This document shows, piece by piece, positions 11,898-40,694 of a DNA stretch of 64,000 nt. A program made the translations under genes and the position numbers. This DNA is from a virus. The notes beneath the pieces are model-generated. The model had not been told where the DNA came from, did no database searches, and saw only the letters and a list, made by a program, of their open reading frames with translations. The DNA lies in the IMG/VR virus record IMGVR_UViG_3300025137_000014, positions 123,123 to 187,122 of that record. One strand, 5' to 3'. The number at the start of each line of letters is the position of its first letter. Positions within the stretch are counted from its first letter, which is position 1.

Positions 11898-12118
11898 TGA
11901 CTTTAGAGCAACAGTTAAACAGATTAAAAGTATTATCAGGTATATATAAACCATATCTACCAGAAGAAACTCAACAAGAGAACATATCTTATACTGGTAC
12001 TGAAAAATCTAAACTTCAAAAGAAGCATAATATACAGCCAGGCACAGATGAATGGTTTAAATTATGGTTTGCAAAGCCTCACTTAACTGGCGAAAGACCT
12101 TTTGGGGATAAACAATGA
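11897..12118 (+). CDS. Hypothetical phage protein
   Basis: 73 aa, TAATG coupling. Confidence 0.7.
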   Translation: MTLEQQLNRLKVLSGIYKPYLPEETQQENISYTGTEKSKLQKKHNIQPGTDEWFKLWFAKPHLTGERPFGDKQ

Positions 12119-13461
12119 AGATAAAAGATATATTACAAAAAGGTAGAGAACGTAGGTTTAGAGGACCACGTAAACCTCGTCTTAAGCAAGTAGGATTTCA
12201 TAAGAAATTAAAAGGTTTGTTAGATGGAAAATTACGAGAAGATAAGAATACACACTTAGACCATGCAGAAGAACTAGTATTCATGCATGGCACAGAAGGG
12301 CTGAAACGTGTTGTAAACACTTTCAGTAAACTACTAAACACACTTGATGGACAAGGTGGCGGCGATGCTATCACTACGAAATGGGATGGTTCTCCAGCAG
12401 TATTTTGCGGAACAGACCCATCTGATGGACAATTCTTTGTAGGCACAAAAGGCGTATTCGCAAAAACACCAAAATTAAATAAATCACAAGCTGACATTGA
12501 AAACAATCACCAAGATACTACTAAGAATGGTGAAGAAGTAAGTAAAGCAGGCTTAAGAAATAAGTTATCAGCATCATTAGAGTATCTAAAAGATTTAGGT
12601 ATTGAGGGTGTTATACAAGGTGATTTATTATTCACTAAAGGTGACTTGAAAACTGTTAATATAGATGGCAAATCTCATATTGCATTTAAACCAAATACAA
12701 TCTCATATGTTGTACCAGCAGATAGCAAAACAGCAAAAGAAATGCAGTCGGCTGAAATAGGTATTGTGTTTCATACAAGTTACACAGGCGATAGTTTAGC
12801 AGATATGAAAGCATCATTTGGTTATGATTCAAGTAAACTTAAGTCTTCATCTAAAGTTTGGTTTACTGATGCACGTATTAAAGATGTATCAGGACAGGTA
12901 CAACTAAAGCAAGAAAATGTTGCAAAGATTAAACAAGCAATTAAAGAATTAGCTTCAATGAAAATTGATGCAGATACTTTCAAAGCAATTAATCAAAAGA
13001 TAGGCGCTATTGACTTAGTACAAGCTATTAAGGCACATGCAAACTTGCCGATACGTACTGGTCAAGCATTAGAACCAGATGTAACTAAATTTGTTAAAGA
13101 GTTTTTACAGGGTTTAAATAATAAATTAGATAAAGAAATCAGCGGTTTAGCTACAGGACCTGAAGGTAAAGCAGGACAGGCTAGATTACAAACAAAGGAT
13201 GCATTATCTAATGTCATAAATACATATGAGACACAAATTGCAGAAATGTATCGTGCATATCTTAAAGTTGAAGCAGTAAAAATGATGTTTCAGCAAAAGA
13301 TGAAGAACATTAAAGCAATAGACAGTTTCATTGAACAACCAGACGGTTCATTTAAAGTTACAGATCCAGAAGGATTTGTTATTGTTGACCATGTGGGTAG
13401 AGCAATGAAGATTGTAGATAGATTAGAGTTTAGTGCGGCAAACTTCGCACCAAGGGATTAG
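12115..13461 (+). CDS. Phage protein with ATP-dependent ligase/nucleotidyltransferase-like motifs (DUF6267-like by recollection)
   Basis: TKWDG (KxDG), QGDLLF, PEGFV, MKIV. Confidence 0.6.
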   Translation: MKIKDILQKGRERRFRGPRKPRLKQVGFHKKLKGLLDGKLREDKNTHLDHAEELVFMHGTEGLKRVVNTFSKLLNTLDGQGGGDAITTKWDGSPAVFCGTDPSDGQFFVGTKGVFAKTPKLNKSQADIENNHQDTTKNGEEVSKAGLRNKLSASLEYLKDLGIEGVIQGDLLFTKGDLKTVNIDGKSHIAFKPNTISYVVPADSKTAKEMQSAEIGIVFHTSYTGDSLADMKASFGYDSSKLKSSSKVWFTDARIKDVSGQVQLKQENVAKIKQAIKELASMKIDADTFKAINQKIGAIDLVQAIKAHANLPIRTGQALEPDVTKFVKEFLQGLNNKLDKEISGLATGPEGKAGQARLQTKDALSNVINTYETQIAEMYRAYLKVEAVKMMFQQKMKNIKAIDSFIEQPDGSFKVTDPEGFVIVDHVGRAMKIVDRLEFSAANFAPRD

Positions 13462-36108: not shown

Positions 36109-36462
36109 ATGAAAACATCAATTATTGGACTGCTAGTCGCAGTCTTTTTTTCTGCAAACGCAATGGCAGAAGAATCAAATGTAACAACAAATATCGATTG
36201 GTCTTTAAAACTTGAAAGACAAGTAGAAGCACAAGCCAACACAGGCGAACTAATGGGTACTATGGCTGTTTTTGGACTAGACGTATCAGCAGGCGGTCTA
36301 TGGAATATTGACAAAACAGGTGAAGACTTTATTGACATGAATAAAATTATGTTGAATGCAAGTCGTTCATTGTCTGACAATGCAAGTGTCTATATAAAGA
36401 ATGATTTTGATACTGATTGGGATAGAACTGAGTCAACTATTGGTCTACAGCTTACATTTTAA
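36109..36462 (+). CDS. Small secreted outer-membrane beta-barrel-like protein
   Basis: Signal peptide ending ANAMA, alternating beta pattern, C-terminal GLQLTF; AAGGAGG RBS; promoter TTGACA-18-TATAAT at 36021. Confidence 0.65.
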   Translation: MKTSIIGLLVAVFFSANAMAEESNVTTNIDWSLKLERQVEAQANTGELMGTMAVFGLDVSAGGLWNIDKTGEDFIDMNKIMLNASRSLSDNASVYIKNDFDTDWDRTESTIGLQLTF

Positions 36463-36466
36463 TTTG

Positions 36467-36497
36467 TTGACAAAAACACCACTATAGTGTATAAATA
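36467..36497 (+). promoter_or_regulatory. Composite early/late promoter for tmRNA
   Basis: TTGACA-17-TATAAA(TA): the -10 box doubles as the TATAAATA late motif. Confidence 0.7.
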
Positions 36498-36501
36498 TAG
36501 A

Positions 36502-36786
36502 TGTTAACGTTGAAGCAACGTAGACACATACTGGACTGGGGGGCAGTACCCCACAGCTCCACCATAATTACTTTGTAGCGTAAAAACTACAAATTTACGG
36601 CATAGAGTAATTATGATGGGGCTGATATAGGATCGACAGGTGTGAAAGTGAAGTGGAGTTGACCGAGTGACTTCGTTATTGGTCAAAAACTATAATTGCA
36701 AACGCAAATTATCAGCCAGAAATGGCAATGGCGGCCTAATTTAGGCACGTAGGGGTTGGTGACTTACCTGGCAACAGAAAAGTCAT
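36502..36786 (+). ncRNA. ssrA: Permuted two-piece tmRNA
   Basis: Acceptor piece ends GGGGGCAGTACCCCACAGCTCCACCA (CCA 36562-36564); IVS 36565-36617; coding piece starts GGGGCTGA at 36618; G3:U70 acceptor stem; tag GCA..TAA 36698-36739 = ANANYQPEMAMAA*. Confidence 0.92.
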
Positions 36787-36816
36787 GTTTTATTTAGGAG
36801 TGGGTATTAATATCAT

Positions 36817-37155
36817 ATGGCATATGTAGTTACAGAGGATTGTATCAAATGTAAATACACAGATTGTGTAGAAGTTTGTCCAGTTGATTGTTTTTATGAA
36901 GGTGAAAATATGCTTGTTATTAATCCAGATGAGTGTATTGACTGCGGAGTATGTGAACCGGAATGCCCGGCAGAAGCTATAATACCCGATACGTCCCCAA
37001 AATTTACACAACGACTATATGATATCAATGATAAATGGTCAAGAGAATGGCCAGTCATTACAGAACAAAAAGACCCCTTACCGGATGCTGATAAACTAAA
37101 TCCAGCTATGGGATACACAGAAGATAAAGTAAAGTTGTTAGACGAATATGACTGA
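36817..37155 (+). CDS. fdxA: Ferredoxin (FdxA, 7Fe-type)
   Basis: [21 protein letters not shown]...[12 protein letters not shown]. Confidence 0.93.
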
Positions 37156-38646: not shown

Positions 38647-39365
38647 AATATAAAAACAGTAACCAGAGGACTAAAGACTATCTAGCTAGGTTTGATAAAA
38701 ATAAAGTTTTACAAAATTTGGTTGGTACTGATACTCCTATAATTATAGATATCGGTGCTAATATTGGACAAACTGTAGAAAAGTTAAAGACTATATGGGA
38801 AAAATCAGTAATACATTCTATAGAGCCTTTGCCGGACGCATATGAAGAACTATACTTGACAAAAGGTAAATTACCCGGTGTTTATGTATATAATACCGCT
38901 ATTGGTTCAATAAATGGTTGGCAAGAATTTAATGTTAACAAACATCAACCTATGCTCAGTGGATTTTATAAATTGAATTCAGATAGTAAAGATAGTATTG
39001 CTATCAACAAACCAGAGAAAGCACATAAGAATTTCTTACAATCTGAATCTATGCAATTTCCAGTGACAACGCTAGATAGATTTACAAGTGAAAATAATAT
39101 AGATAACATAGATATACTTAAAATGGATGCTCAAGGAGCCGAACCAGAGATATTAGAAAATGGAATTGAAACACTAAAGAATACCCGAATCGTTCTTACT
39201 GAATTGTCATTTTATGACTTATATGAAAAGCAGTGTAGTTTCTACGATATTGAGAAAACGTTGATTCCCTTGGGATTCGAACTATTTGATATCGCACATA
39301 TCAGCAAAAACCCAATGAATGGTCGTACAGATTGGGCAGATTTAATTTATATCAAAAAAAATTAA
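38643..39365 (+). CDS. FkbM-family SAM methyltransferase
   Basis: IDIGANIG, SIEP, TTLD, ILKMDAQGAE. Confidence 0.9.
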   Translation: MKYKNSNQRTKDYLARFDKNKVLQNLVGTDTPIIIDIGANIGQTVEKLKTIWEKSVIHSIEPLPDAYEELYLTKGKLPGVYVYNTAIGSINGWQEFNVNKHQPMLSGFYKLNSDSKDSIAINKPEKAHKNFLQSESMQFPVTTLDRFTSENNIDNIDILKMDAQGAEPEILENGIETLKNTRIVLTELSFYDLYEKQCSFYDIEKTLIPLGFELFDIAHISKNPMNGRTDWADLIYIKKN

Positions 39366-39373
39366 AAAAAGAC

Positions 39374-39402
39374 TTGACAATACCGAATCATTATGCTATA
39401 TT
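39374..39402 (+). promoter_or_regulatory. Strong sigma70 promoter with no downstream ORF
   Basis: TTGACA-17-TATATT with extended TG. Confidence 0.8.
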
Positions 39403-39407
39403 AATAA

Positions 39408-39719
39408 CATAAGCATCAGAGAGTTTAGCGACTTAATGATTGTAGTGCAAGGAAGAGGCCTTTACCAGAGGGTCGAACTTGACTAGCTAGGGGTGGTACC
39501 CAGGTTCAAAGCTGAGAGGCCAAGAGTCACATCGCTCTACCGAGCGGAACTAGGTTCCCTTATTTCAGATGGTATCTGTGTTATGGGGTTGTAGGTATAA
39601 CCGAATCCTACCTACTTTGCTTATATTTTATGATTGCAATACCAAGCAATCAAAAATTAAGAGACGGTTGGCAAACCATATTTTTACTCACTTTCATTCA
39701 GCCAACTGTCTCTTTTTTT
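39408..39719 (+). ncRNA. Candidate structured non-coding RNA of unknown class
   Basis: GC-richer than flanks; multiple stems (CGCTC-TACC-GAGCG, CAGAT-GGT-ATCTG, GGAAC-TAG-GTTCC, TGACT/AGTCA); 3' pseudoknot; own promoter and terminator. Confidence 0.65.
39661..39719 (+). terminator. 12-bp stem terminator between convergent units
   Basis: GAGACGGTTGGC...GCCAACTGTCTC followed by T7. Confidence 0.7.
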
Positions 39720-40545
39720 ATTTCCCTAACTTATCTAATGCTGAAATCATTCTAGTCATACCGATTCCGCCACCTACTCTTGGGAAGAAATCAAACTCTA
39801 AGAATTTTTCTAGTTCTGCTTCTACTCTTTCTTTAGAGAATAGTTTGTATAGTAATTCTGAATATTCACCATTTGCTATTGTGTGAAAAGTATCTCTCAT
39901 CATTGCTACATCACATGAACGTTCTGCGGATCCAATAGTTTCCATTCCACCTAATATTACATCTATTTTCTTACTTGTAGCTCCACCTTCATTTCTACTC
40001 ATATTCCAGAACGGAGATGTCATTTCAGGAAAATCTGTAATCATCGTTGAACCGAATTCTTCAAACATTTTAGTTTCGTGTTCTGCTTCCATTTCTATTG
40101 TTGGTTCTAAGTTATAGTGCTTTTGCCAATCAGCATATGTTCTTTCTTCTGGTTTAGAAAACATTAGATATTCACATAATTCATATTCCATCTTTTTCAA
40201 ATCATCAATGTCACCTGGCATTTCAAATTCAAACATTGGGAAGATTATATCATGTCTACCCGGAATAGCATTTGGTTCTTGTCTATAGGACGTGGAGACA
40301 CAAAAAAAGCCCTTACTATCGGGCTTAGAGAGTAATTCGTGTTCTAGCCACATTTGGCCTGTTTGGGGAAGTGGCCAGACCTGGTCTGCATAGTTATATG
40401 TTGCTACATTGAACGGGTCTTCACATGCCGCTAATATAGATAATCTGTTTTGGGTATGGACTTCTAAAAATCCTTTATCCAAAAAAAATGACCTTAAAAG
40501 GCCAACTGTTCTTGTAAATTTATCCGGAGATATTAATTGTGTCAT
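39718..40545 (-). CDS. Class II aaRS catalytic-domain-only protein (AsnRS/AspRS-like; possible asparagine synthetase)
   Basis: STSYRQE..RH motif 2, GGGIGMTR motif 3, GMETIGSAER; no anticodon-binding OB domain; start MTQLIS. Confidence 0.75.
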   Translation of the reverse strand: MTQLISPDKFTRTVGLLRSFFLDKGFLEVHTQNRLSILAACEDPFNVATYNYADQVWPLPQTGQMWLEHELLSKPDSKGFFCVSTSYRQEPNAIPGRHDIIFPMFEFEMPGDIDDLKKMEYELCEYLMFSKPEERTYADWQKHYNLEPTIEMEAEHETKMFEEFGSTMITDFPEMTSPFWNMSRNEGGATSKKIDVILGGMETIGSAERSCDVAMMRDTFHTIANGEYSELLYKLFSKERVEAELEKFLEFDFFPRVGGGIGMTRMISALDKLGK

Positions 40546-40694
40546 TTTCTTTTCCTTTTTGTTATCCAAAAAAAAATATAGCCAAAAAAAATTCTGGTAT
40601 TCGTTTTTTGTATTGCTTTTATTTATCAAAGTTATCAACAACACAATTAAAAATTGTATTGATTTATGTTTAATTATATGTTATCTTAATAAAT

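Follow-up and report, generated by a model that had tools for sequence, protein, structure and literature searches.

The stretch at positions 39,408 to 39,719 of the window (the entire 64,000-nt segment of IMG/VR virus record IMGVR_UViG_3300025137_000014 that was analyzed) encodes a real, tightly folded phage RNA of the already catalogued manA family, and this RNA belongs to a divergent manA clade that is detected only in part by Rfam. We consider it probable that this manA member is a free-standing early phage RNA gene whose product acts in trans and is likely to self-assemble by means of its UACC/GGUA loops.

Identification of a manA RNA in the window

The whole window was scanned with cmscan against Rfam 15 at gathering thresholds, which yielded three matches in total. 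One was to the manA RNA model (RF01745), located at 39424-39621 (+) and covering model positions 1-192 of 192, with a score of 58.1 bits relative to a gathering score of 55.2 and an E-value of 3.1e-12 for the window (2.5e-14 for a 501-nt stretch). The other two matches overlap each other and correspond to a permuted alpha-type tmRNA at 36454-36788. The 187-kb virus record contains only this one copy of manA. A permissive Rfam scan of 39300-39800 gave nothing real beyond manA: no tRNA or tmRNA was found there by the Rfam models, no Rfam ribozyme family matched at E ≤ 1, and the only tmRNA reported by ARAGORN was the one at 36471-36830. The first-pass annotation had recognized no hallmarks of tRNA, tmRNA, SRP, RNase P, or 6S RNA in the stretch, which holds for tRNA and tmRNA; that the stretch resembles no known RNA is incorrect, since the manA model matches from end to end. 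It had also proposed a new RNA class and had named a strong Rfam match as grounds for giving up that claim; the cmscan comparison that it called for returned RF01745 above the gathering score, and therefore the claim of novelty falls. That the stretch is a new class or a self-cleaving ribozyme is hardly credible, as only the dense structure favors it. Against it stand the end-to-end match to a curated family at a score above cut-off, family helices that are confirmed by covariation (see below), and the lack of a match to the ribozyme families.

Because the margin over the gathering score is just 3 bits, the match was checked independently by means of homologues and covariation. The only DNA match in a cultured phage was in Pelagibacter phage Mosig (72.7% identity), and the Mosig element (MT647606 108164-108371, minus strand) also scores as manA, with 64 bits. 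A search pattern built from the window and Mosig sequences identified at least 118 marine viral contigs that carry the clade, in keeping with the marine phage and metagenome habitat of manA, and 70 distinct homologue sequences from such contigs make up alignment A2. The canonical cyanophage copies score 184 bits (P-SSM4) and 182 bits (P-SSM2), whereas the window clade scores 55-64 bits and most sister loci lie below the gathering score (10 of the 14 tested, with 4 passing). No manA match was found in Syn9 or S-PM2. In P-SSM4, an annotated 57-aa hypothetical ORF, PSSM4_169.1 (164884-165057; L129 885-1058), lies almost wholly within manA (164829-165014) and is probably a spurious ORF call.

A collection of bacterial and archaeal genomes (185,579 species' genomes) yielded only two matches, both on large contigs of one MAG. 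These are L135 (PBPT01000082.1, 153 kb) and L136 (PBPT01000016.1, 335 kb), from a Red Sea MAG labelled Neomarinimicrobiota; their sizes and the presence of a manA copy suggest that they are phage contigs misbinned into the MAG.

Structure of the RNA core

The elements of the core are as follows (all on the + strand).

39409-39415 (+): 5′ strand of P0, AUAAGCA, pairing with UGCUUAU at 39618-39624 and sealing both core ends (MFE, RNAalifold)
39415-39440 (+): P1 hairpin, AUCA..GAGUU-UAGC-GACUU..UGAU, formed in 39 of 39 distinct variants, mean z = -2.4
39442-39445 with 39612-39615 (+): P2 closing helix, GUAG with CUAC, 100% paired (n = 70), compensatory changes in 2 of 4 pairs
39457-39474 (+): P3 hairpin, GGCCUU/AGGGUC, loop L3 UACCAG at 39463-39468, 97.9% paired, compensatory changes in 3 pairs
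39483-39553 (+): P4 stem, CUAGCU at 39483-39488 with AACUAG at 39548-39553, 99.5% paired, compensatory changes in 6 of 6 pairs
39490-39501 (+): P5, loop GUGGUA, 100% paired
39503-39528 (+): P6, GAGA tetraloop at 39514-39517, base 98.3% paired
39532-39547 (+): P7, loop CUACCG, 93.1% paired
39558-39588 (+): P8 long hairpin, tip CAGA/UCUG, loop L8 UGGUA at 39570-39574, folding in 41 of 41 distinct variants, mean z = -2.6
39591-39611 (+): P9 hairpin, GUAGG/CCUAC, conserved 11-nt loop L9, 100% paired, compensatory changes in 2 pairs

The minimum free energy (MFE) of the whole stretch is -92.9 kcal/mol (z = -2.95 relative to shuffles). When the Rfam structure was projected on A2 (n = 70), 84.9% of the cells were paired, compared to 74.9% in column shuffles, and 34 pairs had compensatory changes. 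The covariation score was 0.332 versus 0.142 for shuffled alignments, a value reached by 0 of 500 shuffles, and slid controls gave 0.06-0.15. Helices P2 to P7 (P6 at its base) and P9 were 93-100% paired in the 70 homologues, with many compensatory changes. Using RNAalifold alone on 54 sequences, P0 and P3 to P9 were found, including the enclosure of P5, P6, and P7 by P4, with compensatory changes in 29 of 44 pairs. The covariation that the first-pass annotation had proposed to look for is thus present in the family helices, by the projected structure as well as by RNAalifold. P1 and P8 were misaligned by MAFFT because their lengths vary, and therefore these two hairpins were folded one sequence at a time, with the results listed above; in the RNAalifold analysis, each outer pair of P8 had changes on both sides in 14-27 sequences.

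The window RNA has the same P1-P9 architecture as manA RF01745 (PMC2864571), together with the junction and loop motifs of the family that were seen in cmscan and A2: AGUG, a GGUGGU loop, ACC-containing loops, and a GGUA..AAUCC loop. In the manA drawing by Weinberg et al. 2010 (PMC2864571), the element marked "pseudoknot?" corresponds to the P2 closing helix. The junction UGCAAGGAAGAGG directly after the P2 5′ strand is invariant by selection, because it belonged to the search pattern. In contrast to the Rfam model, from which it is absent, the window clade has the terminal helix P0, which covaries: RNAalifold showed each pair changed on both sides in 5-11 sequences, with variant pairs such as AAUGC/GCAUU, CAAUACC/GGUAUUG, and AUAAGUAG/UUACUUA.

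Several of the stems that had been proposed at first from the letters of this one DNA correspond to covarying family helices, namely GGCCTT/AGGGTC (P3), the GGG..CCC pairing around GUGGUA (P5), CGCTC/GAGCG (P7), and CAGAT/ATCTG (the tip of P8). Three others, TGACT/AGTCA, GGAAC/GTTCC, and GGTT/AACC, jointly have one pair with a compensatory change, which is not above shuffles, and were rejected since they clash with the strongly covarying P4, P6, and P8. Of the H-type pseudoknot that had been described, the GGTT/AACC arm is therefore unsupported, but the GTAGG/CCTAC arm is real and covaries as P9. Helices P0, P1, P2, P4, P6, the base of P8, and P10 (see below) had been missed.

Promoter, 3′ module, and small reading frames

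The features that flank the core at the window locus are the following.

39374-39402 (+): sigma70-type promoter, -35 TTGACA at 39374-39379, 17-nt spacer, TGn, -10 TATATT at 39397-39402
39632-39651 (+): P10 hairpin, lineage-specific, GAUUGC-AAUACCAA-GCAAUC, with a fourth UACC loop (from folding)
39659-39719 (+): terminator hairpin, 14-bp stem (39659-39672 with 39701-39714), 28-nt loop, U7 tail, fold of -21 kcal/mol
39718-40644 (-): class II aaRS-like gene, convergent to the RNA (PF00152, E 1e-17)

The promoter was recognized in the first-pass annotation as a near-consensus extended sigma70 promoter, in agreement with the 11 of 12 matches plus the extended -10 found here, and transcription is predicted to start near A39409. 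The spacer (39380-39396) holds GAATC, a GANTC CcrM-type site, 7 nt before the -10 hexamer and 4 nt before TGn; GAATC is at the same position in the spacers of L104, L132, L134, L078, L014, and L074.

The terminal hairpin is a predicted terminator with a T7 run, as had been claimed, although its stem is 14 bp and not 12 bp. Its loop of 28 nt is unusually large, and the terminator was missed by a consensus scanner because the loop exceeds 8 nt. The hairpin abuts the stop codon of the convergent aaRS-like gene and may serve both strands.

No credible ORF was found in the stretch, as had been stated at first: frames of 33, 41, and 105 aa lack conservation among close relatives and extend across the terminator. 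In L104, neither the start codon nor the reading frame of the 41-aa frame is kept, and this frame was rejected as coding. The 105-aa frame was likewise rejected: it starts at an ATG within the conserved L8 loop, and frames from this ATG are between 43 and 124 aa long and continue past terminators. The layout and the fold thus bear out the earlier description of a structured RNA that is non-coding, has an early-type promoter and a terminator of its own, and has no gene to act on in cis.

The window lineage

Five syntenic relatives (L104, L132, L133, L134, and L078) align with the window at 80-89% identity across several kb. They have in common the RNA, an additional hairpin following P0, and a terminator with a covarying stem and a conserved loop of 25-28 nt. 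P10 is kept in L132 and L133, has a compensatory change in L104 (GAUUAC/GUAAUC), and gives way to different hairpins in L134 and L078. The stem of the terminator covaries in L132/L133, L134, and L078, and the loop, AAACCAUAUUUU(U)ACUCACUUUCAUU, is conserved. This 3′ extension, consisting of P10 and the long-loop terminator, is a further difference between the window lineage and the manA RF01745 description.

The aaRS-like gene next to the RNA, which had been noticed at first sight, is absent from the syntenic relative L104, where the RNA and the terminator are still in place. Its link to the RNA is therefore incidental, and a functional connection between the two was rejected in view of this absence. 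The gene is an indel among close relatives, the manA 3′ hairpin marking the edge of a variable region; in L078, a tRNA gene (12041-12125) lies between manA and the aaRS-like gene.

One of the relatives is on a contig of 342.6 kb, consistent with the 51% completeness that CheckV estimates for the 187-kb record. The tmRNA of the window, at 36454-36830 (+), is permuted, two-piece, and alpha-type (122 bits with RF01849 and 118 bits with RF04321), with an ARAGORN tag peptide of ANANYQPEMAMAA; the same gene is present about 3 kb upstream of manA in L078, and a partial match was found in L026. The carrier is a large T4-like marine phage, for which the permuted alpha-type tmRNA suggests an alphaproteobacterial host.

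Genomic layout across the clade and an unlikely riboswitch role

Every one of the 76 distinct upstream regions has a sigma70-type promoter at a constant distance, in 60 cases with the TGn extended -10. The distance from the end of the -10 box to the conserved junction is 35-43 nt (39-43 nt in 75 of the 76). The canonical manA RNAs of P-SSM4 and P-SSM2 likewise have TTGACA-N17-TATAAT directly in front, and so this promoter is shared by the window RNA and canonical manA, as is the habitat in marine T4-like phages.

Downstream counts were based on the 99 loci with enough downstream sequence. An intrinsic terminator is present within 130 nt in 76 of these, mostly about 35-45 nt past the core. The order promoter, RNA, terminator, and gene was found at 58 loci. 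At 14 loci, including the window, the next gene is convergent, with a terminator present in all 14. Another 23 loci, a Mosig-like group, lack the terminator, and the start of a gene follows within 20-150 nt; in P-SSM2 (canonical, outside the 99-locus set) the gene begins 16 nt after manA. In the 23 loci and P-SSM2, manA is thus placed physically as a leader.

When the next genes were grouped irrespective of strand, 20 unrelated clusters were obtained, which include gp32, rubrerythrin, peroxiredoxin, a cytidylyltransferase/mannose-6-P-isomerase fusion, a tail-like FCCH-domain protein, a TonB-receptor-like barrel, and a baseplate hub. The spacers between terminator and gene contained another promoter motif in 31 of 38 distinct cases, compared to 4.1 ± 1.8 in shuffles, and these motifs are mostly of the T4 late type, NATAAATA. 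The 5′ arms of the terminators were not unusually complementary to the 3′ portion of the RNA (mean z +0.36, with no value below -2), i.e., no antiterminator was detected.

Many related phages (L004, L018, L021, L027, L030, and L058) have manA in an island of structured RNAs, with a glutamine riboswitch (RF01739) about 0.2-0.5 kb upstream of manA and a freshwater-2 RNA (RF02980) past the manA terminator, behind a late-type promoter and before a conserved FCCH-domain/tail-like gene.

A cis-regulatory role was proposed for manA by Weinberg et al. 2010 (PMC2864571), and Rfam labels the family "Cis-reg". The label is based on a 5′ UTR position, a criterion that describes a presumed role and not a structure. 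The window RNA differs from that description in being laid out as a free-standing gene, with a terminator and then a convergent gene behind it. A riboswitch or leader acting in cis would be a metabolite-binding fold that gates the terminator and hence read-through into the next gene, and the layout is in part what one would look for: as in transcription-terminating riboswitches, the promoter, structured domain, and intrinsic terminator come in this order, followed by a gene at the 58 loci above, the RNA directly precedes a gene in the 23 loci and P-SSM2, the cytidylyltransferase/mannose-6-P-isomerase gene to which the motif owes its name is one of the downstream clusters, and the complexity of the fold would suffice for an aptamer (PMC2864571). 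However, a convergent next gene, as at the window and 13 other loci, leaves nothing for the RNA to gate. Furthermore, the clade lacks the competing antiterminator of such riboswitches, and the 3′ tail of the RNA is paired with its 5′ end in P0 and not in an alternative pairing. The same-strand genes downstream belong to roughly a dozen unrelated types and have their own, mostly late-type, promoter motifs. In the literature found since the 2010 description there is no ligand, and the role is still called unverified there. We therefore regard a riboswitch as unlikely, while giving it some weight because the layout is also riboswitch-like and some copies are true leaders. In the reading that we prefer, the RNA would act away from its own gene, neither as a leader nor as a riboswitch.

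Loops and the possible mode of action

The recurrence of UACC in loops, which had been noted at first, is real. In the 70 sequences, the invariant loop letters are ACCA in L3, GG.AU in L8, and CC.A.UCC in L9; these lie outside the search pattern, by which L5 alone among the loops was fixed. As read from the window sequence, UACCA of L3 is the exact complement of UGGUA in L8, and UACCG of L7 pairs with UGGUA of L5. No covariation between L3 and L8 was seen in the 70 sequences, and the L8 variants GGCAU and GGAAU are uncompensated in L3.

A 2026 cryo-EM preprint, which is unreviewed, reported the in vitro assembly of purified manA RNAs into pentamers, decamers, and a 60-mer cage in the absence of protein, with kissing contacts named as L5-L7′ and L3-L8′ (or L8-L9′) and a GNRA-receptor contact between L6 and P6′ (10.64898/2026.07.01.735769). 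The window RNA is similar in that its loops are complementary at L3-L8′ and L5-L7′ and in that P6 carries a GNRA tetraloop; it differs in that the solved constructs are other family members, and the helix numbering was matched from text.

On this basis we propose the following mechanism. A host-type sigma70 promoter lies immediately before the RNA and would drive its synthesis early in infection as a discrete molecule of about 216-311 nt, where about 216 nt corresponds to the core (39409-39624) and 311 nt to the RNA with the 3′ module. The RNA folds into the P1-P9 core (39415-39615), closed by P2 and sealed by P0, and is followed by P10 and the long terminator hairpin, with no same-strand gene downstream at the window locus. 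The invariant loops may then be working surfaces for intermolecular kissing through L3-L8′ and L5-L7′. The kissing-loop pairs described in the preprint, combined with the complementary loops of the window RNA, point to self-assembly into a closed RNA oligomer as the likeliest mode of action, and the recurring UACC would be explained by the formation of kissing pairs between UACC and GGUA loops.

The same loops might bind protein instead. The RNA would then sequester a host or phage protein, as a decoy or sponge, or would be a scaffold that depends on a partner protein. A free-standing RNA with an early-type promoter and invariant exposed loops would suit such a role, and the present data do not separate RNA-RNA from RNA-protein contacts. 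However, the loops form mutually complementary pairs (UACCA/UGGUA and UACCG/UGGUA), assembly was reported to be protein-free (10.64898/2026.07.01.735769), and, because the neighbors differ widely, no conserved protein gene accompanies the RNA; we thus think a protein decoy quite unlikely.

It is very improbable that the RNA is a base-pairing sRNA in which the conserved 28-nt terminator loop is an mRNA seed and the manA core a stabilizing body. The conservation of the loop on a covarying stem in the five relatives is in line with this, and, as read from the sequence, the complement of the loop (39673-39700) resembles a ribosome-binding region (GAG, spacer, AUG). Nevertheless, no target above chance was found in the 187-kb record (3 12-mers versus 1.5 in shuffled sequence, and 8 11-mers versus 6.2), and most family members have plain short terminators without such a loop.

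Discussion

Large, ornate phage-associated RNAs of the ROOL and GOLLD families form RNA-only multimers, as reported in cryo-EM work of 2024-2025. The manA RNAs resemble these in being phage-borne, free-standing, and highly structured, and, if the preprint on manA holds, in forming homo-oligomeric assemblies. They differ in that manA, at about 200 nt, is much smaller and shares neither sequence nor fold with them, and no Rfam match to those families was obtained. We tentatively put forward a broader view, which we regard as doubtful at present: that manA RNAs are free early phage RNAs that use their UACC/GGUA loops to form closed RNA-only shells inside infected cells and are not regulators, and that in the ~340-kb lineage the 3′ module (P10 and the hairpin with the 28-nt loop) adds a contact or a second function.

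Since the Rfam model misses 10 of the 14 sister loci tested, manA is under-annotated in marine phage genomes. Pelagibacter phage Mosig, as the carrier of a close homologue, provides a cultivable test system.

The manA RNA was described in 2010 and is still an orphan "riboswitch candidate". For most members of the family, a cis-regulatory role is disfavored by the genomic layout, because every copy has an early-type promoter, the ends are sealed, three quarters of the loci have a terminator, and the genes behind the RNA are convergent or have late promoters and are unrelated to each other. Such a free-standing layout fits the in vitro finding of RNA-only manA cages (10.64898/2026.07.01.735769).
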